Shown here piece by piece: positions 39,630-63,217 of a stretch of 64,000 bases of DNA. This stretch comes from a virus. Where the stretch lies: IMG/VR virus record IMGVR_UViG_3300033802_000277. One strand, given 5' to 3'. Each line of letters starts with the position of its first letter. Positions within the stretch are counted from its first letter, which is position 1. The notes under the pieces are model-generated. The model saw only the letters and a program-made list of their open reading frames with translations. It ran no database searches and was not told where the DNA came from. A program made the position numbers and the translations under genes.

Positions 39630-39812
39630 ATGCAAATTAAAATAACTGATTATTCCGATTCTCATTATTTAGTTATCGTTACCACTCGTAAAGGATATTC
39701 CTATGCTACAACATGGGCAAAAATGAATAACCCATTAGCAGAACAAGAAGTAAAACAAGCTTGGAAAGAGAATAGAAAAAACTTTGATCCTTGGTATGGT
39801 ATACTGCAATAA
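39630..39812 (+). CDS. Early hypothetical protein
   Basis: 60 aa from ATG 39630 (RBS GGGAGG), just 3' of pistol 1. Confidence 0.65.
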   Translation: MQIKITDYSDSHYLVIVTTRKGYSYATTWAKMNNPLAEQEVKQAWKENRKNFDPWYGILQ

Positions 39813-39909
39813 AAGTATAATTTTATAACCTTTACAGACTCCATAAATAAATGTTTGTGGAGTCGATAAAGGTTATAAAACCTAATTATATAACAGGAGG
39901 TTATTTAAA

Positions 39910-40053
39910 ATGCGAACAAAAAAGTGGTATCAAATTTATGGTACTGCGCCAGACGGAAAAGAATATTTATTGGCAAAGGTTAACAGTAAAGGAAATGCTT
40001 ACATTGTTGCGGAAGCTTTAAAAGCAAGTTATAAAAATGTATCTATAAAATAA
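39910..40053 (+). CDS. 47-aa hypothetical protein
   Basis: MRTKKWYQIYGTAPDGKEY..., RBS AGGAGG; below the ORF-track cutoff. Confidence 0.55.
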   Translation: MRTKKWYQIYGTAPDGKEYLLAKVNSKGNAYIVAEALKASYKNVSIK

Positions 40054-40107
40054 AAAAATAAGAATGATTTGATTTTATTTTTTAAAATAAATTATTAATA
40101 AAGGAGA

Positions 40108-40758
40108 ATGATAACTATGACCATGAAGAAAGTTTATGAGGAAGCAGTCCAAAAAATCCAAGCAGGAGGAAAATATACTTTATTTGGTTATAACAGTTTT
40201 GGTTTTCCGGTTATTATGCATACAACTATTCATAAGGCGTATATCGGATCATATGCACAATATAATCATACTTTAGTCATCGAACACCAACCAAAAAGAA
40301 AACGAACGGTTTACAAACAGCATTTGTTACCAGATGAAACGTTTATTTTATGGGAAGGATGGTTAAATATCGATAATAGCGATTTTTGGAAGACAGAAAG
40401 ACAAGAAGAAGTAACAGTCCGCAAAAGTCGTTTAGCGTTCGATAATCAATATATTAGGGAAAAATTGCAAAATGTCAAAGTTAAACCTATAGCAATCCTT
40501 GATCGTGATTATCACATTAATGTAAATAAAATTGAGTTTATTTATCAAGTAGTAACAGAAGATGGTTCGGAATACTATACGTTTGACGAGTTGTTTTCTA
40601 AATATAATTTTGTCGATTTGAACAAGCGCGGAAGAATTGAATTGCATAACCAACCTTGCATTGCTGGTCTTATCGGCCCAATGTGGGGAGGATACGAGGA
40701 CGGGAAAGCAGTAATTCGTTACGAAACACAAGAAATGTATCAATTAATGTCTAATTAA
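40108..40758 (+). CDS. Early hypothetical protein
   Basis: 216 aa with RBS AAAGGAG. Confidence 0.75.
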   Translation: MITMTMKKVYEEAVQKIQAGGKYTLFGYNSFGFPVIMHTTIHKAYIGSYAQYNHTLVIEHQPKRKRTVYKQHLLPDETFILWEGWLNIDNSDFWKTERQEEVTVRKSRLAFDNQYIREKLQNVKVKPIAILDRDYHINVNKIEFIYQVVTEDGSEYYTFDELFSKYNFVDLNKRGRIELHNQPCIAGLIGPMWGGYEDGKAVIRYETQEMYQLMSN

Positions 40759-40772
40759 ACATAAAATATATA

Positions 40773-40848
40773 ACACGTCTGGGCGTGTCTAAACAGCGCC
40801 TTAAGCCGGGAGCGTTTAGAGGCCGTTATATCAGCCTCTAAAGTGGTG
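40773..40848 (+). ncRNA. Pistol ribozyme 2
   Basis: P1 ACACG-UCUGGG-CGUGU, CUAAACAG, P2 CGCC/GGUG, UUAAG-CCGGGA-GCG, P3 UUUAGAGGC/GCCUCUAAA, scissile G40843-U40844; pseudoknot has one G-G mismatch. Confidence 0.82.
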
Positions 40849-40893
40849 ATAACAGCCAAAATATTACATAATGTTTAACAGGAGGTTGTAAAA

Positions 40894-41064
40894 ATGTCTC
40901 GCACAGTAAAAGCTATCGTCCGTATCAACGGACGCGAAACGCAAGTTGAATATTATCTGCCGCGCATGCACTTGTGGCAGACAATCGAAACGATTAAAAA
41001 GCAGGTGCAGCAGGACTATGACCTCATGCACTATGAGGTGTCATTTATTCGTTTTGTCGATTAG
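40894..41064 (+). CDS. 56-aa protein flanked by two pistol ribozymes
   Basis: MSRTVKAIVRINGRETQVEYYLPRMHLW..., RBS AGGAGG. Confidence 0.6.
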   Translation: MSRTVKAIVRINGRETQVEYYLPRMHLWQTIETIKKQVQQDYDLMHYEVSFIRFVD

Positions 41065-41135
41065 TCGTCCCGGCGACTCTAAACAGCGCCTTAAGCCGGG
41101 AGCGCCTAACCGCTTTAACAGCGGTTAGAGTGGCG
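41063..41135 (+). ncRNA. Pistol ribozyme 3
   Basis: P1 AGUCG-UCCCGG-CGACU, CUAAACAG, P2 CGCC/GGCG, UUAAG-CCGGGA-GCG, P3 CUAACCGCU/AGCGGUUAG, scissile G41130-U41131. Confidence 0.9.
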
Positions 41136-41169
41136 AACAAGACATAATATTTACATGGAGGAATGTTTC

Positions 41170-42369
41170 ATGCAAACAAAACAATACGTATTGAATCGCG
41201 AAACGGGAAAGGTTGAATTGCACTTTGAAAAATCAGAATACCAATCTTTAACAGAACAACAAAAAGCAGAATTAAAGCGGTTTTTTCTTTGGAGTCCGTC
41301 CCGTTCTGCTTGGGTGTCTAGAAGCACAAATAATCACTATATGGCTATTCGGATTGCTGAAAAATTGGGCTTTACTGATGGCGGAAAAATAGGCGAAAGA
41401 CTTTCTTTTGCCGAACAATTGGAAAGAAAAGCAGAAAAAGCGGAAGCACGTGCGGAACGTTACGAAAAATATGCAGAAAATGCAGAAAAACGCGCGGAAA
41501 TGTTGCAAGCAGAAATGAACGAGCATTTACGAAATCATGACATTGCTTTTTTCACTCAACCGATCATTGCAGGACATGCTGGTTCGGAACGGTTCGCGCG
41601 TCAACGGCAACGGATTTATGATCGTTATCATAAAGGTTTTGAAGAATATCGCAAAAGTGAATATTTCCGACAAAAAGCCATGACAGCGCAGCAAACGGCG
41701 AGTATGGCGCAATTAAAAGACAAGACATATCTTAATAACAGAATCGAGGAATGCAACGCAAACATTCGTAAATATGAAAAATTGATTGTAACAGCAGAAG
41801 AACAAAATAACGAGAAATGGTTAGAGAGTTTACTTGAAAAAATGGAGTATGAAATAGATAAGCTTGCATTTTTTCAAAATTGTTTGGATGAATTGGGAGG
41901 TATACAATACAACAAAGATAACATAAAACCCGGTTATCTCGTCAAAATTCGTGGTTATTGGGATGTTGTAGTAAAAGCAAATACAAAAACCGTCGAAGTA
42001 AAATCGTCTTATGTTCCGTATACATTGAAATATCCATATGCGGAAATTCAGGAAGTGAAAATTCCTGAAAACTGGACAGAACAAAAACAAATAATTGAAA
42101 ATCCATTCAATGTTGGCGATATCTTAGTGCGTCATAACGTTGCCGGAAATATTATAATAGCAGCTTTTAAGGTTGTAAAAGTAACAGAAAAAAGCGTAAC
42201 TATTCAGCAAATTGCCATTGAAGACGGAAAACCCATTAAAGATAAATTTATAAACGACAAGCAGGAAAGGAGGCAAATAAAAAAGAATACTAAAAACGAA
42301 TACGTCGTTAATTATGATAATTGGTATTTGTATCCTTACAAACAAAAAGAAAACGAACAAAGCGCATAA
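41170..42369 (+). CDS. DUF3560-like domain protein
   Basis: KAEARAERYEKYA...QPIIAGHAGSERFARQRQRI...KSEYFRQKA resembles DUF3560; RBS GGAGGA favours ATG 41170. Confidence 0.65.
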   Translation: MQTKQYVLNRETGKVELHFEKSEYQSLTEQQKAELKRFFLWSPSRSAWVSRSTNNHYMAIRIAEKLGFTDGGKIGERLSFAEQLERKAEKAEARAERYEKYAENAEKRAEMLQAEMNEHLRNHDIAFFTQPIIAGHAGSERFARQRQRIYDRYHKGFEEYRKSEYFRQKAMTAQQTASMAQLKDKTYLNNRIEECNANIRKYEKLIVTAEEQNNEKWLESLLEKMEYEIDKLAFFQNCLDELGGIQYNKDNIKPGYLVKIRGYWDVVVKANTKTVEVKSSYVPYTLKYPYAEIQEVKIPENWTEQKQIIENPFNVGDILVRHNVAGNIIIAAFKVVKVTEKSVTIQQIAIEDGKPIKDKFINDKQERRQIKKNTKNEYVVNYDNWYLYPYKQKENEQSA

Positions 42370-42496
42370 TAATTACAAGCTATTTAGTCCGCATAACAGG
42401 TTTAAGCTTGTTGTGCGGACAATACATTAAAAACAATATATTAATAATGTATCATTTAAAACATATTTAAATTAATAACAATGAGGAGGAATAAAA

Positions 42497-42847
42497 ATGA
42501 AAAAATATCCGATTAAAAGGGAAATTCTGGAAAATTTGCGATTTAATTCTCCGTATACTTGCGAAGAGGATGAAAGATATCCATCTGAATTTTATTTTGG
42601 AGGAAAAAGGATATATCTTTCTCTATACGTTAGCAGTTTTGGTGAAAGATGGTTCAAAGAAAAAGGAGTATCTTTGGCGATAACAATAAACGATTATGAT
42701 AAGGAGGTATTTATATCTATTTACACACATATGAAACTTTATAAAAAAATCATTAGAGAAGAAGGTTATTTAATCAATCTGATCGAAGATAAGAATTATA
42801 TCATTGATGAAAGAGAAGGGGAAACGGGAGAAATATTTTTGATTTAA
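42497..42847 (+). CDS. Hypothetical protein
   Basis: 116 aa with RBS GAGGAGG. Confidence 0.7.
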   Translation: MKKYPIKREILENLRFNSPYTCEEDERYPSEFYFGGKRIYLSLYVSSFGERWFKEKGVSLAITINDYDKEVFISIYTHMKLYKKIIREEGYLINLIEDKNYIIDEREGETGEIFLI

Positions 42848-42980
42848 AAAATAAATATTATCCTTTCCGCACTTGCGGAAAGGATAATAAACTTTTATCA
42901 TAAAGAGAATGATATTTTACAGTAAAATACTCATTTCATGGGATATAATAGATAATAATAAACCTATGGAGGGAGTTTAT

Positions 42981-43196
42981 ATGACTATGAGGATTTCAAT
43001 CAGAATCTCGTGTGATTGCGGAAATGACCATGTGTTTTATTTGAAAGAATACATTTTTAAAAGTGGCGAACGAGAGTTTTCTTTGTCGGATACATTCAGG
43101 AATAATTCAATGTTTGACGTAAGTAATGATCCTGGACTGGGTGGATCTATAGAGGTAGTATGTAAAAATTGCAAAAAGCATATAACCATTTCTTAA
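42981..43196 (+). CDS. Small Cys-containing (CxC...CxxC) protein
   Basis: ISCDCGN...VVCKNCK; RBS GGAGGGAG. Confidence 0.6.
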   Translation: MTMRISIRISCDCGNDHVFYLKEYIFKSGEREFSLSDTFRNNSMFDVSNDPGLGGSIEVVCKNCKKHITIS

Positions 43197-43314
43197 AAAA
43201 TTATATTGCACCCAATCAGATTGATTTAACACAAATTGAAAAAATTTTTTGAACTAAGTAATTTAAAAAACGTAGTCCCAATACATTTTCGGAAATATAA
43301 GGAGGAATGTTAAC

Positions 43315-45694: not shown

Positions 45695-45697
45695 GAG

Positions 45698-46155: not shown

Positions 46156-46350
46156 ATGTTTATAACAGTTTATAATGATAATATCAAAGTCTTCGAAGGT
46201 ACCTTGTCGGATTTTTTATCTGACAATGACAATGATGAATGGTTAACAGACGAATGTCGTAAACTGGCAAGTGTTAATCAAATTGAATTTAATGAAATAT
46301 CCGGTCATTGGAAAATTGTAAAAACAGCAAATAACAAAAGGAGCGAATAA
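46156..46350 (+). CDS. Hypothetical protein
   Basis: 64 aa with RBS AAAGGAG. Confidence 0.6.
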   Translation: MFITVYNDNIKVFEGTLSDFLSDNDNDEWLTDECRKLASVNQIEFNEISGHWKIVKTANNKRSE

Positions 46351-46387
46351 ACATGTATAGACTTGTAACCAAAATAATAAATTAAAA

Positions 46388-46762
46388 ATGATTTATAACA
46401 GCCAACCAATGGGAGAAATGGACTATGCTACATATAGAGCATGTAAGCAACACTTAAAAGATATTTTGCGAACGGAAACGGATGAAAAAGGCGTTCCTTT
46501 ATATTATGATAGACTCATAACAGAAACGTTTCCGTCACTTGATATTCAATTTCCAAACGAATCATCATCTTGTGTAAAGTTGTCACTCCTTTTTAGGTTA
46601 CAAAAAAGCATGCATGATATTAATAAAATTGTACTAATGGCGCAACGAATTGAAAGATTTACAAGGGAAGAAGCAGCATATTGGTTGTCCAAAACTCTTT
46701 ATGATACAGAAGAACATAACAGATGGGCAGTAAAAGGGCTAAGGATTGTATTGGCTGGATAA
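46388..46762 (+). CDS. Conserved phage hypothetical protein
   Basis: 124 aa; REEAAYWLSK...NRWAVKGLRIVL. Confidence 0.65.
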   Translation: MIYNSQPMGEMDYATYRACKQHLKDILRTETDEKGVPLYYDRLITETFPSLDIQFPNESSSCVKLSLLFRLQKSMHDINKIVLMAQRIERFTREEAAYWLSKTLYDTEEHNRWAVKGLRIVLAG

Positions 46763-46875
46763 TAACATATTTAAGATCAAACGATTCTATAATAAAATGT
46801 CCATTTTACTAGAGTAATAAACAAAATATTATATATTGATATAAACATTTCCGACTATAGAAAGGAGCAAAAATA

Positions 46876-47638: not shown

Positions 47639-47820
47639 ATGAATCAATTATTCGGATATTATTGGGATAAAAAACAAACAATGTGACTGTATACAACAAA
47701 GAAATAGCAAAACAATTAGAATCAACCAGAAAAATAATTTGGGTTATTAGTCCAAGTATTGAAGTAGTTGCAGAAGAACTACAAAAACAAGGAGTTACAG
47801 TAACAGTTTTCAATTTCTAA
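47639..47820 (+). pseudogene. Small gene with a -1 frameshift in an A-run
   Basis: RBS GGGAG; MNQLFGYYWDKK / TNNVTVYNKEIAKQL...FNF*. Confidence 0.5.
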
Positions 47821-47904
47821 TGTGGGTGCATAACCCGCATTTTTTATGATCAATTTGTGCGATAAAAGCAGAATTTTATTATATGAACAAATGGAGTGAT
47901 AACA

Positions 47905-50243: not shown

Positions 50244-50690
50244 ATGGAAGTTTTAATTATGAATGATGTTATTTTTAAAAGAACAAATGAAGGGTTTGGG
50301 AAGTATGTGTTAATTTATCCCAAGGATGGCATTGATGGTTTAGATGGAAGTATTGATTTTAAATCGTTTAGCATTTTTTCAGGAAAGCCGGAAATTGAAT
50401 TTGGTTTATTTTCAATTGAAACGGATAATGAGATTGAACCATCAGAAAAAATTAAAGATTATAGGCGCTATTTGCTTATTGAACAACTAACACAAGATGT
50501 ATGTTTGATTAGAACATTTAATTATGGAATTTACTTTAGATATTTTGGTGTATGTAACTCAGAAGTAATTGACGATGAAAACAATTATATGTGTACTATG
50601 TCTGTTTATGATGAACACATGAAACTTATTGATCGTAAAGAAATATTGACAAAAAAAGCACAAGGAAGAATACCAGATGATGAACTTTAA
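50244..50690 (+). CDS. Hypothetical protein
   Basis: ~145 aa ORF. Confidence 0.65.
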   Translation: MEVLIMNDVIFKRTNEGFGKYVLIYPKDGIDGLDGSIDFKSFSIFSGKPEIEFGLFSIETDNEIEPSEKIKDYRRYLLIEQLTQDVCLIRTFNYGIYFRYFGVCNSEVIDDENNYMCTMSVYDEHMKLIDRKEILTKKAQGRIPDDEL

Positions 50691-51206
50691 CTGGTAATAT
50701 TAAACAAAAACCTAAAGGATGGAAGGTGGTTAAGGAAATTCAACCTAATACTAAGTTTACCGGATTAGTATAAAGCAAATGAAATGACTGTTTGATTGGA
50801 AAGTGTAGGTGAATATTATTTGACTAATCAACAGTGGGAAGAGTTTTATGGATTACATTGCCTTTGGGTTGGTAGAGGTAAATGGCTTATTTATCGCAAT
50901 AAAAATGATAAGGAAGCTATAGAAATGCATTGTGGAACTAAACAATCTCTAAAGAAAAGATGTAAACAATTACAATAAAATGGTATTTTAATCTAATTTA
51001 GAAAGGACGGATCTACGTTGCAACAAATCAATGACAAAGAATGGATTTCAGATGATGGCGAATGGATTGTCTTTACTGATGGGAAAGTCAAGGTTTATCA
51101 TCTAGAGGAACGCATTGATTTAGATCATGCTGATATACCAAAAGAAGTCCAAATATTTTTGGATTCGTTAGAGTAACTACAATTTTAACAGCGAGGTAAT
51201 GAAATA

Positions 51207-51681: not shown

Positions 51682-52794
51682 ATGGAACAAGTATTGGCGT
51701 TAGAAGAAAATGTTAGCGTAAAGGAAGGAAATCAGGTTGCTTATGACGAAAATATGTTTGAAAAAGAAGGGAGTGTTACTCAGGTGGGAACTGTTGAAAA
51801 TATGTCTTTGAGAGAACGGATTGAAAAAGAAAGAATCGCTAAACAGCCAGCGATTCAAATTGGATTGCGGTCGTTAGTTAAAAATCCTTCAAAGTTAAAT
51901 TTCAATCTTGTGATTCAGCGTAATCTTCGTTGGACACGCGAACAGAAAAGTTCTCTTATTGAATCTGTTATTTTGGGATATCCGATTCCAGCAATATATT
52001 CGATCAAAAGCGAAGATAATAGCTTGTGGGTGTTGGATGGAAAACAAAGATTGACTACGCTTATTAGCTTTTGCAAAGACGAATGGGAATTAAGTGAATT
52101 ACCAAACGCTTTTGGTGTTGATATTACTGGAAAAAAATTCTCAGAACTTCCTGAGGAGTTTCAAGAGTTTTTTGATGAACTAACATTGACGTTTTATCAA
52201 TTTGAGCGACTTACCATAGATCAACGAGATCAATTGTTTAAGCGACTTAACAGTGGAACACCGCTTTCAGCAATAGAACTAACACGTTCTATTCTTGGTT
52301 CTGAGTGGTTAGAATATATTGATAGCATAGCGCAAAAACCATTTTTTGAAATGGCGGCATTAACTGATAACCAGCGTGACAAATTTGTTGATCAGGAATT
52401 AATTTTACAGGTAATTGGTTTGGTTACTGGAAGACTAAATGATATGAGTAGCAAACACGTAAGAGAATTTTCAATCGATTTACGTGTTAATGGGATGTCG
52501 GATGATGACAAGAAGAAAGTTTCTGATGTATTCGATTATTTAACAGACGCATTCGGAAATCTGGAAGAAAAACACAGAAAGAAAATACTTAAGAAAAATG
52601 ACATTATTGGATTGGCTGGTGCTGCTGCTGAATTGATGAACGATATCGATGCAGACACATTTGGCAGAAGAACCGCTTCATTGATTGTGAAAAATACTGG
52701 ATCGTATAGAGATACAAAAACGAGCGGTAGCGCCAAGGAATCTAATGTTAAGAAGCGTATTCAACTTTTGATTCAAGCAGTAAAAGAAGAATAA
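51682..52794 (+). CDS. DUF262 (ParB-like/GmrSD N-terminal) protein
   Basis: IQRNLRW...SSLIESVILGYPIP...VLDGKQRLTTL...LFKRLNSGTPLS. Confidence 0.8.
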   Translation: MEQVLALEENVSVKEGNQVAYDENMFEKEGSVTQVGTVENMSLRERIEKERIAKQPAIQIGLRSLVKNPSKLNFNLVIQRNLRWTREQKSSLIESVILGYPIPAIYSIKSEDNSLWVLDGKQRLTTLISFCKDEWELSELPNAFGVDITGKKFSELPEEFQEFFDELTLTFYQFERLTIDQRDQLFKRLNSGTPLSAIELTRSILGSEWLEYIDSIAQKPFFEMAALTDNQRDKFVDQELILQVIGLVTGRLNDMSSKHVREFSIDLRVNGMSDDDKKKVSDVFDYLTDAFGNLEEKHRKKILKKNDIIGLAGAAAELMNDIDADTFGRRTASLIVKNTGSYRDTKTSGSAKESNVKKRIQLLIQAVKEE

Positions 52795-52843: not shown

Positions 52844-53218
52844 ATGAAAGAAGTGCTTACAAAAGACATTTATGTTCCGGTCGGCAGATTTTCAAAAAAA
52901 ACGATTCTTGGTGGTATGTATCGCGTGAAAGTAATGTATTATCCAGAGAATCCAACAGATAGTTTGTTTCGATTCGATAGTACCTACCAGTTAGGTGATA
53001 TCGGAGAGATTGACGACGAAATTGTGCGTACTGGCGCAGTTTCAGATGAACCAGTGCCAACTGTTGAGGATTTGTTTGATAGGGAAATGATAAAAGCCAC
53101 TTTTGAAAATGGTGTAGTTGAGGATATTCCTGTTCGTGATTTGATTGTTCTTCGTTCTATTCGTGATGTTGTCCCTAATTTAGATTATCATGCATATATT
53201 GCGGAGAAGGAGAAATAA
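52844..53218 (+). CDS. Hypothetical protein
   Basis: 124 aa with RBS AAGGAG. Confidence 0.7.
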   Translation: MKEVLTKDIYVPVGRFSKKTILGGMYRVKVMYYPENPTDSLFRFDSTYQLGDIGEIDDEIVRTGAVSDEPVPTVEDLFDREMIKATFENGVVEDIPVRDLIVLRSIRDVVPNLDYHAYIAEKEK

Positions 53219-53288
53219 AGAAAAAGTCAATTATCTAATCAAACTATATTTTTATCGGGAGATTGATTCGAAGGAGTGAATTTGAAAA

Positions 53289-53603
53289 GTGGATATTATA
53301 TCAAGTAAAATAGTAAAAACACGAAAAGATCATTATTGCTTTGGGTGTGCCAGAAAAATTCTAAAAGGTAATAAAATGCAACGTGTAAAAAGTGTAGACA
53401 TGGGGAGTGTTTCGACAGCTTATTGGTGTGATGTATGCCAAAAGTATTGGAACAAATATATGTATTATGATGATGAAATTGGGTACGGAGATTTGCGGTC
53501 TAGCGATCCTAATGGTTGGGAAGAGATTAAAAAGTCTATCGAAAATGAGGAGTTGATAGTTAATGTTGATAAAAGAAATCAGATCGAAGACACTTGGTTT
53601 TGA
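53289..53603 (+). CDS. Zn-finger hypothetical protein
   Basis: HYCFGC...YWCDVC. Confidence 0.65.
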   Translation: MDIISSKIVKTRKDHYCFGCARKILKGNKMQRVKSVDMGSVSTAYWCDVCQKYWNKYMYYDDEIGYGDLRSSDPNGWEEIKKSIENEELIVNVDKRNQIEDTWF

Positions 53604-53766
53604 CAAGGGGAGTTATATAGAGGTTGAACATATTGACGGTAAAATTCAAAAAATTTCTCTTAAAAGGGATAAAAAGAGGTTTAATGACAGAAATCTTGAT
53701 AATCAGTTTTATTTTATTGAAAAAGGTAATAGAGTTTATGTTAATGAAATAAAGACGATGAAATGA
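53563..53766 (+). CDS. Hypothetical protein
   Basis: 67 aa with RBS GAGGAG. Confidence 0.55.
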   Translation: MLIKEIRSKTLGFDKGSYIEVEHIDGKIQKISLKRDKKRFNDRNLDNQFYFIEKGNRVYVNEIKTMK

Positions 53767-53992
53767 TCCTTTTATTGGAGGTTGGTAACATTGGCTGGTG
53801 ACAGAGGTAATTGGATTAAAATACGCAAAGAAATAAAACAAAGGGCAGTTGAGCGAGAAAAGAATAAGGATAGATGTATATGTGGCAAAAAGGATAGGTA
53901 TGGTTTGATTGACGGATTGTGCGCAGATTGCTTTGATAAGAAACTAGATAACAACTGATAAAAGAATGTATTTTAAGGGGAGATGATAAAAA

Positions 53993-54177
53993 ATGTTTCA
54001 AGTTGGGCAATTGGTAAATCTTAAAAATCCTCAAGACTTTCCGTACATTGGGCGGGTGTCTGGAGAAGTGGAAATTTTAGAAGTAAATAACCAATTGTGT
54101 GCAGGGTTAAAGTTGCAAATGGAATGTTAAAGGGATTTTCTTTTGATGTTGAACTTTCTGAATTAGAAAGCAAATAA
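53993..54177 (+). pseudogene. Small gene with a +2 frameshift in a TG microrepeat
   Basis: MFQVGQLVNLKNP...NNQL / CRVKVANGMLKGFSFDVELSELESK*. Confidence 0.5.
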
Positions 54178-54207
54178 AACGATCTTTTTATGAGGGAGGG
54201 ATAAAAA

Positions 54208-54420
54208 ATGGCGAGAAAAGCAGTTTGCAAGGTGTGTAATCGAGAAATTAATACACAAAAACAGTCGCATTATAAATTTGGTAAGGATATTGTTTGCTAC
54301 GTTGAAGGGACAGAAGATTGTGTTATAACATATGTTGGCTGGCATTTAATAGAAAAGGGAGATGGATCGGGAAGATATAACGGCGGTTATGAAATGATTG
54401 GTATGTACGGAAATGATTGA
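54208..54420 (+). CDS. Hypothetical protein
   Basis: 70 aa with RBS GAGGGAGG. Confidence 0.6.
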   Translation: MARKAVCKVCNREINTQKQSHYKFGKDIVCYVEGTEDCVITYVGWHLIEKGDGSGRYNGGYEMIGMYGND

Positions 54421-54440
54421 TGATAAAATGAATATTTTAT

Positions 54441-54629
54441 GTGGAGTTGATTGGTGTGGAAACTGGAATTTACATGAAAGACGGAAATGAGATATATGTT
54501 TATCAAATCCTATACCACTTAGGCAAAGCGTATTACAAGGCAAGATCAAGGGTAAAAACAAAGTGGACAAGAGAATCATATGTTATGACTATTGAAGAAC
54601 TAAAGGAATGGGCGTTTGTATCCAAATGA
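54441..54629 (+). CDS. Hypothetical protein
   Basis: ~60 aa; start uncertain. Confidence 0.55.
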   Translation: MELIGVETGIYMKDGNEIYVYQILYHLGKAYYKARSRVKTKWTRESYVMTIEELKEWAFVSK

Positions 54630-54659
54630 AAGGATTCTTTTAATGGGAGATGATTAAAC

Positions 54660-54836
54660 ATGGACAAGGAAAAAGCATGGGATGAATTAAAGCAATGGTT
54701 AATCAGGGCAGTTCCGAAAAAATATGAAGAGTCTCAGTCGTTAGGACTGTGTAAATCTGACAGCGATTATATTGCGGCAATAGCGAGAGGAATGGATCAA
54801 GTGCTAATGAAAATGGAAGACATGGAAAGACAATAA
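54660..54836 (+). CDS. 58-aa hypothetical protein
   Basis: MDKEKAWDELKQWL..., RBS GGGAG. Confidence 0.55.
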   Translation: MDKEKAWDELKQWLIRAVPKKYEESQSLGLCKSDSDYIAAIARGMDQVLMKMEDMERQ

Positions 54837-54845
54837 GAGAAGTAT

Positions 54846-55112
54846 TTGATAGTAAAGAGGGTGATTAGTATTAAAATAAATGATTTAAAGATAATTATAA
54901 ATCAACATAAAAGAGATAAAGAATATTATAAAAGTTATATACAATATTGTAGTTTAGTTTATAAATTAGATATTGATGAAGCATATGAATTGACTTTAAC
55001 TGATTTGAGTAGGTATGATTATGCACTTGAAGATGTTGATATAGTTTTTAGTGCATATCAAGAGTTAATTCAAAATATAGGAGATGATAATATAAATGTT
55101 CAAACCGAATGA
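54846..55112 (+). CDS. Hypothetical protein
   Basis: ~88 aa ORF; start uncertain. Confidence 0.5.
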   Translation: MIVKRVISIKINDLKIIINQHKRDKEYYKSYIQYCSLVYKLDIDEAYELTLTDLSRYDYALEDVDIVFSAYQELIQNIGDDNINVQTE

Positions 55113-55275
55113 TGAAGTAATAAGTAAAATAACAGGAGAAAGAGCAATTGTCAGTTACATAAATGATGAGGAATTAATGACAGTACGTTTTAAAACAAAA
55201 AAATTTAATAAAGGAAATCTTGAATCACATGGAACACAAGTATTAATTAAGAATTTTGAATTGGCTATAAAATAA
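55096..55275 (+). CDS. 59-aa hypothetical protein
   Basis: MFKPNDEVISKITGERAIV..., RBS GGAGATGA. Confidence 0.55.
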   Translation: MFKPNDEVISKITGERAIVSYINDEELMTVRFKTKKFNKGNLESHGTQVLIKNFELAIK

Positions 55276-55293
55276 GTCTTTTTGAGGATGTGA

Positions 55294-55458
55294 ATGAGTT
55301 TGATTAAAAAAATTTTACGATACTTTGGATATTATAAGATTAGTGATCTTGATACTGGTGGTTGGTGCGGTATTTGTGGGAAATGGATGGAAAAGGAAAT
55401 TTTCCCCAAAGATGAAGACAAATTTTGGAGAATATCAATATGTGAAGAATGTAAATAA
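55294..55458 (+). CDS. 54-aa Zn-finger protein
   Basis: WCGICGK...ICEECK, RBS GAGGATG; preferred over the overlapping track ORF 55325-55546. Confidence 0.55.
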   Translation: MSLIKKILRYFGYYKISDLDTGGWCGICGKWMEKEIFPKDEDKFWRISICEECK

Positions 55459-55530
55459 AAAATTTTTCTTAAGGGGTTTGGTGAATGACTCAAAAGAAAT
55501 GATAATAAATACAATTTTTGATTATGAGTA

Positions 55531-55788
55531 TTGCAAATTGCGATAAAAAAGCAATTTGATTGGGAAGGGGAAACTGACTTGAAAAAGGGAAATCGGATAA
55601 CAGCAATACACAATAAGTCTGGATTAATATTAAATTATTTGATAGTGGAAGATCAAGATACCCATAAATACAGACTTGTTAACACTGGCAGCGGTAACAT
55701 TATGGGAAATTTTCAAACAGATAGTTTAGATGATGTTTATACTTATCTTGAAAAAACAGTTAAGTGTGAAATATTAGAAATACGATAA
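55531..55788 (+). CDS. Hypothetical protein
   Basis: ~85 aa; start uncertain. Confidence 0.55.
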   Translation: MQIAIKKQFDWEGETDLKKGNRITAIHNKSGLILNYLIVEDQDTHKYRLVNTGSGNIMGNFQTDSLDDVYTYLEKTVKCEILEIR

Positions 55789-55826
55789 AAAGTGAATTTC
55801 ATCATCATAAAGGAGTAAATTAAAAA

Positions 55827-56043
55827 ATGAATAATACAAAACTTACATAAAAAAATTGATAAACAATATTTTATCTTTTCTGAATGGTGTGTGTTGCCGT
55901 TAGAATCGTTTTTCTTCGAACAGGATGCAAAGGACTACATTAATGGATTTAAGCATGAACCAATCGGAGAACAGACCGGCGCATATTTGAAGGGTATGGA
56001 ATATCGAAATTATATTGATAAAGCATTCGCCGCACACTCGTGA
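55827..56043 (+). pseudogene. Small gene with an early frameshift
   Basis: RBS AAAGGAG; MNNTK / LHKKIDKQYFIFSEWC...AAHS*. Confidence 0.5.
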
Positions 56044-56244
56044 ATTTAGTCATGAGTAAGGCGAATACATATGTTAATGAAGACATAAAAATAGGATGGG
56101 AATTTAAACGCTATAACGAATTGGATGAGGTGTGCTAAAAATAAATCAGATTGAACATATTAAAAATAAATTATTGTAAATTTCATAAAATATAACGGAA
56201 GTGATAAACTATGACCAAGATTGAAGAAGAAGGGGCGGCATAAC

Positions 56245-56514
56245 ATGCACACAGCAAAAGATATAAAGTATAAAAACATGGAGCGAATGATCAAGACAAT
56301 AACAGATCGGTTTAGTTTGATGTTTGATAATGTGGAGAAGTCGGATAAAAGTTTTTCACCGTTTGAAAAAGAAAACCTTTATAACTGGCTTTACGTACAG
56401 TTGGCTAAAGATGCCTTGATGAAGTGGATGTCATTACAGCAATATCAAATAGTAATGCAACATTTAGATTCAGTCTATAACAGCTATGTCGAGAAATTAC
56501 ATGATAAAAATTGA
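56245..56514 (+). CDS. Hypothetical protein
   Basis: 89 aa from ATG 56245. Confidence 0.6.
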
Positions 56515-56551
56515 TCCAAGGAAATCGGTATTTTATAGGAGGAAAGTATTT

Positions 56552-56782
56552 ATGTTAGATGAAAAAACTCTATATTCTATCTTTGAGAAAGCTAAAAAAT
56601 ACGATGAGTTAATTAAGTTCCCAATTACCATAAAGGAAGTATCTTGTTCATTCTGCGGGAAGTCTCAAAGTTCTGTCTCAAAACTTGTCGCTGGTAATGG
56701 GGTGTATATTTGTGATGAATGTATAAATTTGTGTGTTGAATTATTAAATAAAGAAGACAGTAAGAAAGAATCAGATGATTAA
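56552..56782 (+). CDS. Small protein with a ClpX-type C4 zinc-binding domain
   Basis: [34 protein letters not shown]; RBS AGGAGG before ATG 56552. Confidence 0.85.
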
Positions 56783-56828
56783 ATGTGATGGTAAATAAAA
56801 TTTGTGTTTTATTGGGAGGCTAATTAAG

Positions 56829-57056
56829 ATGTTAGATGTTAAAGAGAGAACTGGGAAAGATTTGCATGAATTAAGTATTTACGAACTTATCAATGAATAT
56901 AAAAAATCAAATGAGGAGATTTCGAATATTGTACGTAACGCAATTCAATTTAAATTAGATGACGATCAAAGAGCAATGTTAAACGATAAATGCAAAGAGT
57001 ATAAACAGTATGGTTATGAGTTGGCGGAAGAATTAATGAAACGAATGAGTAAATGA
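56829..57056 (+). CDS. Hypothetical protein
   Basis: 75 aa with RBS GGGAGG. Confidence 0.6.
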   Translation: MLDVKERTGKDLHELSIYELINEYKKSNEEISNIVRNAIQFKLDDDQRAMLNDKCKEYKQYGYELAEELMKRMSK

Positions 57057-57506
57057 AATTGTATTTATAGAGAGGAAAAATAATTTGAAGATTTTTTGAG
57101 TAGATCGATGAGGAATGAATATTTATCAGAATATGAATGGGTAAAATGTAACAGAAATTTGTTAAAGATACTATAAAAAAAGATGAAGAGAAATGGATAT
57201 TGGTAAAAGTAAATGACTACCATCATAAAGTTTGCATTTAATTATCAGGGGAGGTTTTTAAAATTTTAGAAATATTAAATAAAATATTTCCAACCATTGC
57301 TCTAGTCTATACTATTGTTATCATATGGTATGGATATTTTTCAGGTGAATTAGGTATAGATATATGGTTTCCAATTACAATATCATCTATTTTTCTAATA
57401 TTGATAGGAAATGAAATAAAGTACATGAAGCGATAAACCCGTATTTGATGATGTAAATCAATACTGAATTACAACAAAATCCGCATTTTATTAGGAGGAT
57501 AAAAAT

Positions 57507-57929
57507 ATGAGTGTTTGGACGCATGTGAATGGAAGCGTTAGAGTTGACGGGTTTTTGTATAGCAGAGAAAATGAAATTAAAAAAGCATTGGGCAAGATTG
57601 TAAATTATGATGATGACGATTGGGATACAGATTTACCTTGTGGAAGTGAAGGCAGTCTAAAATATACTGTTTGGACGAATCCAGATGAAAGTCATATTGC
57701 AAAACATACGATAAATATATTTGGTGATTTGAGAGATTATAATGATTCTGAATCGATAAAAGAATGGTTTGAATCGGTGATTAAAAAACTCAACCCTTTT
57801 TCTATTCGGGACGCCGTATTAACTGTTGATGTTGAATTCGGAGAAATGTTTGTTTATGTTTTAAAAAAGAAAGAACTTAACAATGAAGATGAATTAGATT
57901 GGGAAATTATTGCTTTTAATTACAAATAA
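57507..57929 (+). CDS. Hypothetical protein
   Basis: 140 aa with RBS AGGAGG; MSVWTHVNGSVRVD...PCGSEGSL. Confidence 0.75.
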   Translation: MSVWTHVNGSVRVDGFLYSRENEIKKALGKIVNYDDDDWDTDLPCGSEGSLKYTVWTNPDESHIAKHTINIFGDLRDYNDSESIKEWFESVIKKLNPFSIRDAVLTVDVEFGEMFVYVLKKKELNNEDELDWEIIAFNYK

Positions 57930-58323: not shown

Positions 58324-58455
58324 TGCCGATTCTCCTCTCGTTTCTAAACCTTTGGTAGTTTTATAGTAGCACATACGTTCGTAAGTTGCAACACTTTTTT
58401 ATTATGTTGCGTGCAAGCAACACAAATGATATTATTATATATTGGGTGGTTTAAA

Positions 58456-59202
58456 ATGAATTTAAAGGAGTTTGGTGAATTCTTCGCAGAAATAAGAAAA
58501 AGAGAAGGATATAATTCGCAACGTGAACTAGCTGAGAAGTCAGGAGTTAACCATGCGACAATTAGTAGACTTGAATCTGGAACTACAAGAACCAGTCCTG
58601 AAATATTAGAGCAATTGTCAAAATGTTTTAAATACATCACGTATGAAGAATTGTTACGAAGAGCAGGATACTTAAATGAAGATGACTTGACGCATAAAAT
58701 AGAACAAATAAAAAAGAAAAGTGATTCTGTTATATCAAAAATTATGGAAGCATATAGAAAATCACAAGTTAAAAACAATTCGCTTCAACAAGACATTATT
58801 AATATTTATGATTCTAATATTGTTGAGATACCAATTTATGGAACAATCAAGGCTGGATATGATTTGATAGCCGAACAGAATATTATAGGATATGAGGTTG
58901 TTTCAAAAAAATTAGTTTCAGATGGTGAATATTTTTATTTAATAGTCAAAGGAGACAGTATGATCGGAGATGGTATAACAGATGGATGCAAAGTGCTTAT
59001 TCGTCGTCAAAATTATGTAGAGAATGGAAAAATAGGAGTGGTATTAATTGACGGAGAAGAAGCAACGCTTAAAAGAATTTACTACGAAGGGAACAATGTG
59101 ATACTGCAAGCGTCCAACCCTAAAGTTGAACCAAGGATTTTATCCTTAAATGATGTTATGATTCAAGGTCAAGTAAAAAGTTACATTGTGGATGTGGATT
59201 AG
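58456..59202 (+). CDS. CI/LexA-type repressor (XRE HTH plus S24 peptidase)
   Basis: SQRELAEKSGVNHATISRLESG; autocleavage site KAG; catalytic GDSM and TLKR. Confidence 0.9.
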   Translation: MNLKEFGEFFAEIRKREGYNSQRELAEKSGVNHATISRLESGTTRTSPEILEQLSKCFKYITYEELLRRAGYLNEDDLTHKIEQIKKKSDSVISKIMEAYRKSQVKNNSLQQDIINIYDSNIVEIPIYGTIKAGYDLIAEQNIIGYEVVSKKLVSDGEYFYLIVKGDSMIGDGITDGCKVLIRRQNYVENGKIGVVLIDGEEATLKRIYYEGNNVILQASNPKVEPRILSLNDVMIQGQVKSYIVDVD

Positions 59203-60131: not shown

Positions 60132-60208
60132 ATTCCTCATTCACCTCAGTATCATTTTAATCCAATATGAGAAAAAATATTCAAAACAATTGAAAATATC
60201 TTGAAAAT

Positions 60209-60222
60209 CGAACGCCTGTTCC
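60209..60222. promoter_or_regulatory. LexA (SOS/Cheo) box next to the mazF promoter
   Basis: CGAACGCCTGTTCC (GAAC-N4-GTTC core intact); TTGTTA-17bp-TATAAT at 60224-60252. Confidence 0.6.
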
Positions 60223-60299
60223 CTTGTTAAATATACCAACATAAACTATAATCATAGTAGTAAATATTTTGTTTCTAAAAATAGAGGGAGAGGATATAG

Positions 60300-60719
60300 A
60301 TGATTGCAGTTGCAGAAAGGATGAGGCCAACTCGGAGTTATGAAATTCAAAAATTATACATTAAAAAATTAGATGTAAGACAATGGGATATTTGGATGGC
60401 TGATCTGTCAGGGGGTACAGTCGGTTCCGAACAATCAGGAAAAAGACCTGTGCTTGTACTTCAAAATGATATTGGTAACAAATTTAGCACAACAATTATT
60501 GTTGCAGCGATAACATCTCAAAATAAAACTAAACTTCCTACCCATGTTGAACTGAAAGCTGAAAGATATAATTTAGAAAAAGATTCAGTTATCATGTTAG
60601 AACAATTAAGAACGATTGACAAACTTAGACTGGAAGAGAAAATAACAACGCTTGATAATGAAGCAATAAATAAAGTATTGAATGCTCTCGATGTGTCGTT
60701 AGGAAGAAAAAGAGCATAA
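60300..60719 (+). CDS. mazF: MazF/PemK (NdoA-like) endoribonuclease, orphan
   Basis: ADLSGGTVGSEQSGKRPVLVLQNDIGNKFS...VAAIT...LPTHV...DSVIMLEQLRTIDK. Confidence 0.9.
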   Translation: MIAVAERMRPTRSYEIQKLYIKKLDVRQWDIWMADLSGGTVGSEQSGKRPVLVLQNDIGNKFSTTIIVAAITSQNKTKLPTHVELKAERYNLEKDSVIMLEQLRTIDKLRLEEKITTLDNEAINKVLNALDVSLGRKRA

Positions 60720-60840
60720 AATATTAATTTGAACTCGTATTTTGATACGGGTTTTTATTTTTTAAAAAGCAAATTATATAAATTAATTTAAAAATATTTG
60801 TGGAAAAAGTTAGTGGACGGTGGTATAATATTGCCAAAGG

Positions 60841-61326
60841 ATGAAATCGTTTGTGGGGCGATCTATTTTGAGGGAAAATTTAAACGTCAAACTGTTTGAA
60901 CGATATATCAAAGAACATTTTGGCGAAACACTCGCTATTTCTCCTGTTAACAGCATGACACCTTTTGTTGTAAGAATGCCTGACGGGACAGAGGAGTATA
61001 TCTTTGTTGTAAAAGCAGAAAGTTGGCTTTATGAACCGCTAAAAGGAAAGAGTATTAATGATGTAGTTCCGATGAGTGCAAAAGCATATTTGGAAAATGG
61101 TAATTTGATTTTTGGTTTTGATGTTCAACCTGATATCAGTCTTGAGTCTGAAATACCTAAAGAGAAAATTAAAGGATTCTTGCAGAGATTATATAAACAA
61201 GAAGTATTGACAGTTGTTATAGTGGATCATATAACAACCAATATTGTATGGTTGACGAATAATTTTCCATTTTGGCGAGTGAAAAGTCAATTTCGACCAT
61301 TATTTGATTATTTTGGAGTTAAGTAA
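60841..61326 (+). CDS. Hypothetical protein
   Basis: 161 aa ORF. Confidence 0.65.
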   Translation: MKSFVGRSILRENLNVKLFERYIKEHFGETLAISPVNSMTPFVVRMPDGTEEYIFVVKAESWLYEPLKGKSINDVVPMSAKAYLENGNLIFGFDVQPDISLESEIPKEKIKGFLQRLYKQEVLTVVIVDHITTNIVWLTNNFPFWRVKSQFRPLFDYFGVK

Positions 61327-61357
61327 AAAGAAATAATAGGAAAAAGAGGCAATTTCA

Positions 61358-61780
61358 ATGCTTACTAAGACTCAGAAAAATTTTAAAAAGAGAATGAAAC
61401 AGATTGAAAGAAAGTATAAAAATAAGGAAAAATTTTATAGCTATATACATGACAGATATATATCTAGTTATTATGAAAGATCGAAAGAAAATCGTAGTAT
61501 AATTAGGTGGTTAAACATTGCAAAATACTTTTTTATTGTTGTTGCGTTAATATTTGGATCAATTTTTTACTTTTTTGCTCCATATAGTAACATTACAGCA
61601 ATTCCGTTCACTTTAATGATTATTTCTATAATTCTTTTATTATTTGGTTTGATACATCCTTCGTTGGCTTTTTTTGATGGCAGATCACGAATAAGAGTGG
61701 TTATAGTTTATGGGTTTTCAATTTTCGTTTGGTTTTTTGTGTGTGCCATTACATTATTACAATATACGATAAAATCCTGA
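61358..61780 (+). CDS. Membrane protein (three hydrophobic segments)
   Basis: YFFIVVALIFGSIFYFF; IPFTLMIISIILLLFGLI; VVIVYGFSIFVWFFVCAITLL. Confidence 0.7.
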   Translation: MLTKTQKNFKKRMKQIERKYKNKEKFYSYIHDRYISSYYERSKENRSIIRWLNIAKYFFIVVALIFGSIFYFFAPYSNITAIPFTLMIISIILLLFGLIHPSLAFFDGRSRIRVVIVYGFSIFVWFFVCAITLLQYTIKS

Positions 61781-61799
61781 TTTTATGAGGGTGAAACTT

Positions 61800-61961
61800 A
61801 TGGGAAGATGGCAAGGTAATCATTTTAGTTGTCGTCAATGCGGAATATCTATAGGTACCTTTAGAAAGGATCAAGAAACAGGCAAGAAGATTCCTGTATA
61901 TAATGAAAAACATTGTGGTGATGGTCAATATTGCAAATCATGTAAACCAATAAAAAACTGA
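61800..61961 (+). CDS. 53-aa Zn-finger protein
   Basis: FSCRQCG...YCKSCK, RBS GAGGGTGA. Confidence 0.5.
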   Translation: MGRWQGNHFSCRQCGISIGTFRKDQETGKKIPVYNEKHCGDGQYCKSCKPIKN

Positions 61962-61990
61962 TTTTATTGAATAATAAGGAGGAGAATTTT

Positions 61991-62158
61991 ATGAGTGGAC
62001 TAAGAGAAATTTATGATAAGAAAGCTGAAGAAGAGGCTTATTGGAGACAACAAGCAAAGAATGAAACAATTAAAAGAATGATGGAAAAACTTAATAAATA
62101 TGATGACGATACAAGAAGATTATTAGAGGTAATATACGATGAATTCAAGCGATATTAA
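61991..62158 (+). CDS. Hypothetical protein
   Basis: 55 aa with RBS AAGGAGG. Confidence 0.55.
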   Translation: MSGLREIYDKKAEEEAYWRQQAKNETIKRMMEKLNKYDDDTRRLLEVIYDEFKRY

Positions 62159-62399
62159 TGGTAAGATATTGAAGTTAAATCATACTTATTTACAGCTTTC
62201 TATTTTAGGTTCGGGTAAAGAGATTAAACTTGATCCTTTAGAGATTAGATCAATTGATTTTTATTTCGATGTAATGCGAATAGAAATTTTTTATCAAAAT
62301 CTTGACACGCTAATTTTACAAGATAATCATCCTTCAACTTTAGAACTAATGAAAAAATGGGCAGAACTAGAAGGAGTTAAGTATAGAATTAACCATTAA
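62139..62399 (+). CDS. Hypothetical protein
   Basis: 86 aa overlapping the upstream gene. Confidence 0.55.
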   Translation: MNSSDINGKILKLNHTYLQLSILGSGKEIKLDPLEIRSIDFYFDVMRIEIFYQNLDTLILQDNHPSTLELMKKWAELEGVKYRINH

Positions 62400-62438
62400 A
62401 AGACTGGTTTTATCAGGATATGAAACGGAGGTTATGAT

Positions 62439-62729
62439 TTGAAAGTTAAACAATCAGATTTGAACAAATTAGCAAGAAAAATCGCAAAAGCAAATGAAGC
62501 ATTATGGGATGCAATTGGATATATTGGGGAAGTTTTAAATGATGACTTGTATATAGAAATTTCAAGTGATTACAAAGAACATAATGATTTATTAAAAAAG
62601 TTGGCAGTATCTTATGATAGATTAAATAAAAAATTTGATGGTTTTGCTGATGCCAGTTTGCATAATAGAGATTTTGACGATTTTGATGAATTAGCAAGAC
62701 GAATAGATGAAGTTCTTGAAAATGAATAA
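62439..62729 (+). CDS. Hypothetical protein
   Basis: 96 aa with RBS GGAGG. Confidence 0.65.
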   Translation: MKVKQSDLNKLARKIAKANEALWDAIGYIGEVLNDDLYIEISSDYKEHNDLLKKLAVSYDRLNKKFDGFADASLHNRDFDDFDELARRIDEVLENE

Positions 62730-62762
62730 AACCTGAATTTCATATGAAATGGAGGTTATTAA

Positions 62763-63182
62763 ATGTTAAAGGATTTGGATATTGAAGAAATTCAAGCGTT
62801 CTTTCGTGACTTGCTTTCAAAAGATACTGGAAAATTTCAATTAGCACAAATTTATGGAATGGCAAAAGCATGGCAAGAACAGAGAGAAAGAGAAGAATCA
62901 ATAGAAAAACAGATCGAAAGAAGAACTCGTAGAGTTATTAAAACAACAATAATTTCGGATGATTTAGCAATTGTTGAAGCAGAAGTTACAATCAATAATT
63001 CAAAAGAAACATCGTATTACCCTGTTGTTAATGGTAAATTTCATAACGAATCAAGAATGACTTTTGACGAAGCATTACTTCTTGGTTTTTGCAGAAAATA
63101 TAACAATGAACATTTTGATTTAGCAATTTATAATATGCTGAGAATGGATTTGAAACAACGGGAGAATTCCAATAAAAACTGA
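62763..63182 (+). CDS. Hypothetical protein
   Basis: 139 aa with RBS GGAGG. Confidence 0.7.
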   Translation: MLKDLDIEEIQAFFRDLLSKDTGKFQLAQIYGMAKAWQEQREREESIEKQIERRTRRVIKTTIISDDLAIVEAEVTINNSKETSYYPVVNGKFHNESRMTFDEALLLGFCRKYNNEHFDLAIYNMLRMDLKQRENSNKN

Positions 63183-63217
63183 CTTTTATTATTCGAGAAG
63201 GTGTGGATTAATATAAT

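Follow-up and report, generated by a model that had tools for sequence, protein, structure and literature searches.

The window analysed here, 64,000 nucleotides of a virus recorded in IMG/VR as IMGVR_UViG_3300033802_000277, carries at many of its gene junctions a short palindrome, TAAAA-N6-TTTTA, in which two inverted arms enclose a 6-bp centre. The palindrome is a hallmark of the whole SPbeta-like phage group. Its anatomy, its distribution across the family, its DNA-level character, the exchange boundaries at its edges, the uniqueness and asymmetry of its centre, and the conserved catalytic residues of two recombinase-like phage proteins are established below. From comparison of these sequences it is proposed that the palindromes are quite possibly heterospecific sites of the dif/lox type, mediating exchange between equivalent junctions of related genomes.

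A palindrome of fixed spacing at gene junctions

TAAAA-N6-TTTTA occurs 14 times in the whole window, against an expectation of 2.19 +/- 1.36, and none of 100 dinucleotide-preserving shuffled sequences reached 14. When arm spacings of 0-24 bp were scanned at 39-64 kb, ten copies were found at 6 bp and 0-3 at every other spacing. Chance and base composition are ruled out as the source of the palindrome by the shuffles together with the spacing scan. A sequence-only reading of the window had described an integron-like cassette array at 39810-63188 and had proposed a motif scan against shuffled controls, in which the enrichment proves clear (14 versus 2.19). The ten perfect sites that it had listed are all present (39810, 46793, 47863, 54175, 54424, 56796, 61770, 61951, 62397 and 63173), and their ten centres are all distinct. 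Its nine near-matches also exist, six with one mismatch (50976, 54627, 55544, 55786, 57475 and 62727) and three with two (53959, 54834 and 56520), and five one-mismatch junction sites can be added to them (42923, 53239, 53759, 55268 and 60717).

At 39810 and 62397 the left arm contains the upstream stop codon; elsewhere this codon falls within the centre (61770, 61951 and 63173), 3-44 nt 5' of the site (54424, 56796, 46793 and 54175) or far upstream (47863). From the end of the right arm to the next start codon there are 14-29 nt in seven of the ten perfect sites (14-19 nt within the two gene arrays described below), so that the arm abuts the Shine-Dalgarno sequence. According to the junction table and a scan for promoters and terminators, the sites bound mostly one-gene units in long operons devoid of internal promoters and terminators. 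Outside the reported span there are four further perfect sites, of which 15329 is a true minus-strand gene junction, and 14968, 25065 and 38297 are intragenic; these three fit the chance background of about two per window.

Distribution across the SPbeta-like phages

The genes of the window place it within a large siphovirus of the SPbeta-like group. The terminase shares 73% identity with its counterpart in Geobacillus virus E3 and has relatives annotated as YonF, and the yomI-yomM order of SPbeta is reproduced, a tape-measure gene being followed by a tyrosine recombinase gene. The minus-strand half holds the structural genes and the plus-strand half the early and accessory genes. The nearest relative found, an IMG/VR record designated G001, has 26 perfect sites, against 0-4 at other spacings; SPbeta has 34, again against 0-4, and Geobacillus virus E3 has 30. 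Ten further large IMG/VR viral contigs have 12-45 perfect sites each. G001 was the sole relative found by single-protein scans of viral contigs, and searches of GenBank phage nucleotide sequences with the window and its motif-rich loci gave nothing close. No RNA runs containing this phage were found. No mention of the palindrome was found in an SPbeta review, in the YonO, MrpR and arbitrium papers or in a comparative-genomics preprint, a search that did not cover the 1999 SPbeta genome paper; within this literature the palindrome system appears to be undescribed.

Uniqueness and asymmetry of the centre

The most discriminating result concerns the 6-bp centre, which was compared in both orientations among 403 perfect sites of 14 genomes. 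Among the 6,187 within-genome pairs there is no pair of identical centres (P=0.0005), while a position-specific composition model predicts 6.5 and the coincidence rate between genomes (91/74,816 pairs) predicts 7.5. Likewise, none of the 403 centres is palindromic, against 6.8-7.4 expected from the genome-wide frequency of palindromic hexamers in the same genomes (P about 0.001). The overlap region of a tyrosine recombinase must be asymmetric to give polarity to the exchange, and identical overlaps in one replicon would cause deletions or inversions. A recombinase overlap region thus predicts both the asymmetry and the uniqueness, whereas the spacer of an operator predicts neither, and the centre data therefore favour a recombination site. 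Special conservation of the centre was not seen among close relatives, a comparison of low power.

Exchange boundaries between related genomes

G001 is collinear with the window at 32-64 kb and yet mosaic. On base-by-base inspection, blocks of homology between the two end at motif edges at 39821, 42943, 54172, 54450, 54626, 56818, 57449 and 63170. The gene at 54456-54629 is replaced in G001 by an unrelated gene, swapped exactly between two sites that keep their centres (TGAATA and GGATTC). The joints of G001 recur in contigs from a bioreactor metagenome (X2), and the contigs assembled from runs give two haplotypes only, the window type (X1, X3 and X4) and the G001 type (X2).

A better-powered test was provided by the early region of seven SPbeta-group phages. 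Here 233 unique block ends were obtained, of which the starts cluster at motif positions -12 to +3 and the ends at +16 to +26, with almost none inside. Among 31 centres common to at least two genomes, the left flank takes two or more unrelated forms at 12 and the right flank at 14. One centre can adjoin 2-5 unrelated flanks on its left or right side (3-5 different genes stand on the left of GATCAA, TCGGTC and others), and at four sites three of the four possible combinations of left and right flank occur. The outer arms travel with the flank, and the shared piece is the 16-bp core. Breakpoints were found at 33 of 57 motif junctions (58%) and at 34 of 118 others (29%), an odds ratio of 3.4 (p=3e-4) that has to be read with the shared ancestry of the genomes and the greater length of motif junctions in mind. 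In the lineage of the window (window, G001 and G005), 38 shared centres keep both flanks, five have a different left flank and four a different right flank. The sequence-only reading had proposed checking whether gene gain and loss in relatives break in the spacer. Block ends do fall at motif edges, but they resolve to the edges of the 16-bp core and not to the spacer itself, and the window-G001 pair lacks the enrichment seen in the SPbeta group.

A double-stranded DNA site

By the pattern of its variation, the palindrome behaves as a putative protein site on double-stranded DNA rather than as an RNA hairpin. Among 305 junction instances from 33 sources, pairing of mirrored positions was not above expectation and compensated changes occurred at chance level, and the folding z-scores of the A-U-only stem were near zero (-1.9 to +0.6). 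This lack of covariation and of a stable fold rules out the RNA hairpin that the sequence-only reading had named as a finding that would undo its proposal. In SPbeta the symmetry extends outward, T/Y/T at -5 to -3 mirroring A/R/A at +20 to +22, to give a site of 11+6+11 = 28 bp. The inner part of the arm, A-TAAAA, is invariant across the phage group and the outer part is weaker; several other genomes have T-rich outer arms like those of SPbeta. A weaker outer symmetry (T-C-C-R-A / T-Y-G-G-A) is seen in the window lineage, where conserved positions reach about -4 and +21. The profiles of the left and mirrored right outer arms correlate at 0.69 within genomes and 0.58 between them, an effect too modest to indicate strong lineage-specific outer arms, and it is given no weight. 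Inverted arms around a 6-bp spacer are the form of a tyrosine-recombinase core site, as the sequence-only reading had recognised.

Other DNA elements were considered and rejected. The palindrome differs in sequence and distribution from SPBRE, the operator of MrpR. The published late promoter of YonO is a single one upstream of yonK, and the palindromes lie mostly in early clusters. Promoter-like sites of the sigma-A type are not above chance, and the right arm is too close to the Shine-Dalgarno sequence for a promoter.

Candidate recombinases

Two genes of the window encode Xer-like tyrosine recombinases:

12412-13422, minus strand: ortholog of YomM, 63% identical to SPbeta YomM; the gene adjoins the tape-measure gene.
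31164-32216, plus strand: ortholog of YopP, 29% identical to SPbeta YopP (E 5e-36); the gene lies at the point where the late and early arms diverge.

Both proteins have a Phage_integrase catalytic domain and a SAM-like N-terminal domain above the Pfam cut-offs, so the two phage tyrosine recombinases of the sequence-only reading are real members of the family. The 31164 protein corresponds to YopP and is not MrpR (YopR). Alignment with the solved Xer-type recombinase 4a8e, for the YomM-like protein also with E. coli XerD, and within each family showed that the tyrosine, Arg-I, the hairpin lysine, His-II and His-III are kept in every member of the YomM and YopP families. MrpR, a non-catalytic relative with the recombinase fold, has lost four of the seven catalytic residues (PMC10516654). 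The enzyme of SPbeta integration is the serine recombinase SprA, which leaves YomM and YopP with no known substrate, and no published function was found for either. The SPbeta YopP gene lies in the lysogeny operon. When presence and absence were profiled across 50 viral contigs, the motif tracked both genes, the YopP-like gene somewhat better: at least seven strict sites were found in all seven complete genomes with a YopP-like gene and in three of 16 without one. This profile is suggestive of a link with the motif, and on their sequences the YomM-family (12412) and/or the YopP-family (31164) protein is a candidate enzyme for the sites.

Proposed mechanism and alternatives

If the palindromes mediate recombination, each would be a dif/lox-type core on double-stranded DNA with two inverted protein-binding arms and a 6-bp overlap. 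A phage Xer-like recombinase of the YomM and/or YopP family would bind as a dimer and would exchange strands only with a site of the same centre, namely the equivalent junction on another genome copy, a related phage or a prophage. Different sites of one genome would be mutually incompatible, avoiding deletions, and two sites around a gene would act as a heterospecific lox pair, as in recombinase-mediated cassette exchange. Single accessory genes would be swapped in this way, with gene order and operon structure kept. The identity of the binding protein, its cutting of the site and the crossover within the centre are steps that we infer.

The sequence-only reading had pictured promoterless one-gene cassettes inserted or shuffled at the sites. 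The units are indeed mostly single genes lacking promoters, and replacements are bounded by sites, but insertion as circles is not supported. Circular insertion at one site would leave the same centre on both sides, and none is repeated; exchange between equivalent sites of two genomes fits better.

Several points weigh against such exchange. The evidence for it is comparative and comes from assembled contigs of DNA runs. Between the window and G001, breakpoints were counted by us at about 9 of 24 motif junctions and at 14 of 34 other junctions, and many of them lie where the motif is absent. The centre diverges among close relatives as much as the flanks do (3.0% versus 2.8-3.5%). Ordinary homologous recombination within identical blocks of 1.4-18 kb explains the laboratory hybrids of phi3Ts and SPbeta, which are uninformative for the crossover position because the crossovers fell in such long identical blocks. 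Arg-II is replaced by lysine in both proteins of the window and of SPbeta, while other family members have arginine, a change that may signal little or no catalytic activity. Phylogeny confounds the association of the motif with YomM/YopP, and G041 and G039 have many sites although no clear YomM is present in them. Finally, the outer-arm symmetry is modest outside SPbeta-type genomes, and in the window lineage its right side overlaps the start of the Shine-Dalgarno sequence.

The strongest of the alternatives, though we think it rather unlikely, is an operator resembling a stoperator, bound by a dimeric phage protein (a non-catalytic recombinase-fold protein like MrpR, or a helix-turn-helix (HTH) protein) that blocks or times transcription of the early operons. 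The mosaic boundaries would then be a by-product, the 16-bp islands being the sole identity in divergent regions and only exchanges at gene borders surviving, an account that we likewise doubt. Palindromic DNA sites within operons and directly 5' of the Shine-Dalgarno sequence would suit an operator, as would the place of YopP in the lysogeny operon, the lysine at Arg-II in both candidate recombinases and the breakpoints at junctions devoid of the motif. SPbeta already uses the recombinase-fold MrpR purely as a repressor (PMC10516654), and its Sak4-like annealase, known from annotation, could use short homologies. An operator accounts for where the sites lie and for the changed Arg-II. It does not account for the constrained centre, since nothing would demand asymmetry or uniqueness of an operator spacer, yet palindromic centres (0 of 403) and identical within-genome pairs (0 of 6,187) are both absent. 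Moreover, the ChAP-seq peaks of MrpR are the ten SPBRE only and not the palindromes (PMC10516654), the catalytic tyrosine, histidine and Arg-I are conserved in YomM and YopP across distant phages, and at several sites two or more independent exchanges must have stopped precisely at the 16-bp core.

Use of the sites by XerC/XerD-type recombinases of the host (CodV/RipX in Bacillus), as for pdif modules and IMEX elements, seems improbable. The 11-6-11 anatomy and the conserved inner ATAA/TTAT-like positions resemble dif, and the host proteins are always at hand. Against this, the symmetric arms suggest a homodimer and not a XerC/XerD pair, and the inner arm does not vary among phages whose hosts differ widely (Bacillus, Geobacillus and metagenomic Firmicutes). 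Two Xer-like genes are conserved in the phages, and the palindrome arms appear to agree with the B. subtilis dif at only about half of their positions, which also counts against the host enzymes. Literal integron behaviour, in which a phage integrase inserts circular promoterless cassettes singly at a site, is very improbable. The mostly one-gene, promoterless units bounded by sites and the presence or absence of a gene beside the 57475 site accord with it, but no centre is duplicated around any gene, and neither attC-like sites nor an adjacent recombinase-attI-Pc platform was found. The span begins about 8 kb from the recombinase gene at 31164 and about 26 kb from that at 12412, both of which belong to other transcription units, and the right boundary of the gene at 57507-57929 is only a two-mismatch look-alike with a different centre. 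Least probable of all is an RNA-level element, an mRNA hairpin or protein site for processing, stability or translational coupling. The tight placement between stop codon and Shine-Dalgarno sequence, 14-19 nt before the start in most array junctions, would accord with it, and Pistol ribozymes at other junctions indicate that intercistronic RNA processing occurs in this phage. The 305 instances lack compensatory changes, however, and the A-U-only stem has the z-scores given above; the SPbeta site lies 10-20 nt from the Shine-Dalgarno sequence with symmetry extending to 28 bp, sites also occur at minus-strand and terminator-flanked junctions, and the constraints on the centre are left unexplained.

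Sites and gene arrays of the window

The sites of the window, with centres where these bear on the argument, are as follows:

39810-39825: perfect, GTATAA; the left arm is the stop of the gene at 39630-39812, and homology with G001 begins at the right arm.
42923-42938: one mismatch (TAAAATACTCATTTCA); perfect in G001, with a right flank that differs between the window and G001.
46793-46808: perfect, TGTCCA; intergenic and conserved in G001.
47863-47878: perfect, GCAGAA; directly 3' of a terminator-like hairpin at 47819-47841.
50976-50991: one mismatch; the left arm is the stop of the gene at 50820-50978.
53239-53254: one-mismatch junction site from the junction table, TCAAA...TTTTA.
53759-53774: one-mismatch junction site, TGAAA...TTTTA; the next start codon is 16 nt on.
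54175-54190: perfect, CGATCT; its left edge is the start of a homology block with G001 and X2, and to its left lie 1.3 kb (five small genes) versus 334 nt in the relative.
54424-54439: perfect, TGAATA; identical in G001, the right-hand gene at 54456-54629 being replaced in G001 and X2.
54627-54642: one mismatch, TGAAA GGATTC TTTTA; same centre in G001, right boundary of the replaced gene, with which the left arm travels.
55268-55283: one-mismatch junction site from the junction table.
55544-55559: one-mismatch junction site; X2 lacks 40 nt (55537-55576) spanning it.
55786-55801: one-mismatch junction site; the left arm is the stop codon.
56796-56811: perfect, TTTGTG; its right edge is the end of the homology block with G001 and X2.
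57475-57490: one mismatch, TCCGCA shared with G001; the gene at 57507-57929 on its right is absent from G001.
60717-60732: one mismatch; at the stop of the MazF-like gene and followed by a terminator-like hairpin.
61770-61785: perfect, TCCTGA; upstream stop codon inside the centre.
61951-61966: perfect, AACTGA; upstream stop codon inside the centre.
62397-62412: perfect, GACTGG; the left arm is the stop codon.
62727-62742: one-mismatch junction site from the junction table.
63173-63188: perfect, ACTGAC; identical in G001, its left edge being the point where homology resumes after 1.8 kb of unrelated genes.
15329-15344: perfect; between minus-strand genes of the structural module and not within the originally reported span.

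There are two gene arrays, whose palindrome-bearing stretches lie at about 53.2-57.5 kb and 61.7-63.2 kb:

52844-57929, plus strand: main array, an operon of about 25 small ORFan genes in which no internal terminator-like or strong promoter-like sites were found.
60841-63658, plus strand: second array of small genes, with a promoter-like site upstream at 60801-60829.

Recognisable neighbours of the arrays include, besides an ankyrin-repeat protein, three plus-strand genes that lie between or beside them:

51682-52794, plus strand: nuclease with a GmrSD N domain.
58411-59202, plus strand: CI/LexA-type repressor (HTH and S24 peptidase domains), a type unlike the MrpR of SPbeta.
60300-60719, plus strand: toxin of the MazF/PemK family.

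Elsewhere in the window, an open reading frame of 517 aa on the minus strand at 29456-31009, which matches the PHROG 'sigma factor' family and pieces of GIY-YIG and HNH endonucleases, occupies the place of the RNA polymerase gene yonO in SPbeta. The comparison with G001 also revealed a 1.7-kb (approximate) insert in G001 within the homolog of the gene at 50244-50690, at window position 50525|50526 and with clean flanks, which looks like an intron or homing-endonuclease insertion. In G001 and X2 a 470-nt deletion (46238-46708) brings two neighbouring genes together at a short shared sequence that is not the motif.

Other elements are found at junctions in the left part of the reported span and its vicinity. 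Three Pistol self-cleaving ribozymes (Rfam RF02679) lie on the plus strand at gene junctions, at 39530-39601, 40773-40848 and 41063-41129, scoring 66, 60 and 38 bits where the gathering threshold is 34.5; some junctions of this phage are therefore served by ribozymes and others by the palindrome. Junctions at 38191-38256, 38506-38566, 42369-42398 and elsewhere in the 38-47 kb region carry another family of repeats, which has no match in Rfam. It forms hairpins on ...GCATAACA...TGTTGTGC..., with ATAACAGGAGG as the context of ribosome-binding sites. The stretches at 38572-38613 and 42428-42469 form a 42-nt direct repeat of 88% identity, which starts with a one-mismatch look-alike of the palindrome (TAAAAACAATATATTA) and is an element separate from it.

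Comparison with known systems

In Cre/loxP and in heterospecific lox and FRT sites, an asymmetric overlap sets polarity and partner, different overlaps do not recombine, and two sites allow clean replacement. The phage sites share with this type the asymmetric centre and the absence of identical centres within one replicon (0 versus 7.5 expected). Cre/loxP of P1 is also alike in its inverted arms and asymmetric overlap, and in belonging, with a phage tyrosine recombinase, to a phage with headful packaging (bioRxiv 10.1101/2021.11.22.469490). P1 has one lox site, whereas these phages have 30-45 sites with arms of 10-11 bp instead of 13 and a centre of 6 bp instead of 8, and the phage exchange is deduced from comparative genomics alone.

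The pdif/dif modules of Acinetobacter plasmids are similar in that many sites per replicon bound accessory modules in differing contexts, each site spanning 28 bp (11+6+11), of which the inner arms are palindromic and conserved while the outer arms and the 6-bp centre vary (PMC6449649). By profile comparison the phage palindrome has the same layout of two 11-bp arms around a 6-bp centre, a spacing to which it is restricted, with palindromic conserved inner arms and variable outer parts and centre. It differs in the replicon, a phage, in candidate enzymes that are phage-encoded instead of the XerC/D of the host, and in arms that mirror each other, pointing to a homodimer, where pdif has two different arms for the XerC/XerD heterodimer. 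Furthermore, the phage centres are unique and asymmetric in each genome, the modules are single small genes in operons, and alternating XerC/D-XerD/C pairs are absent.

Integrons resemble the phage arrays in their mostly promoterless, mostly single-ORF units between recombination-type sites and in an element-encoded tyrosine recombinase. The integron analogy drawn by the sequence-only reading is not supported in other respects. No intI with an adjacent attI and the cassette promoter Pc heads the arrays, and in place of attC, an imperfect palindrome of 57-141 nt that acts as a folded single strand, there are short symmetric dif-like sites of 16-28 bp whose centres are never duplicated.

In cluster A mycobacteriophages the immunity repressor (gp71 in L5) binds stoperators, which are 13 bp long, asymmetric and aligned with the direction of transcription. 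Both kinds come as dozens of short sites, protein-binding in stoperators and putatively so here, in short gaps of long operons, but the phage palindromes have symmetric arms and a constrained centre, and the master repressor MrpR of SPbeta is absent from them, its ChAP-seq peaks being at SPBRE only. SPBRE, the operator of MrpR (YopR), is itself a repeated palindrome of the same phage group bound by a recombinase-fold protein (PMC10516654); it differs in its sequence (ACAAAWAATATGTATA), in overlapping the -10 regions of promoters and in having about 10 promoter copies, versus 34 palindromes at gene junctions. In SPbeta (NC_001884), no more than about 150 bp separates the palindromes at 76171, 99498 and 129297 from promoters under SPBRE control (aimR, yorE and yosX), and the two elements are thus sometimes neighbours despite their different sequences. 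The nearest known kinds are pdif modules and heterospecific lox sites, and the integron label is wrong.

Implications

The clean gene-by-gene mosaicism of phage genomes is a long-standing question, usually answered by 'illegitimate recombination plus selection' or by 'relaxed homologous recombination'. If the proposed exchange is real, gene junctions equipped with a dedicated, addressable crossover site would add a third mechanism of mosaicism. It is directly testable, and SPbeta provides a genetically tractable model with two conserved recombinase-like genes, yomM and yopP. Possibly, SPbeta-like phages run a natural system of cassette exchange, with 30-45 addressed sites at which YomM/YopP recombinases swap accessory genes between co-infecting phages and prophages, and the same system may also circularise or resolve headful-packaged genomes. 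Such exchange would supply dozens of natural, mutually incompatible recombination sites usable in genome engineering. Should the sites prove to be operators, they would still represent a new genome-wide regulatory layer of this phage group; as sites of exchange, they would explain the rapid turnover of accessory genes, including those for defence, counter-defence and toxins, in widespread large phages of Firmicutes.

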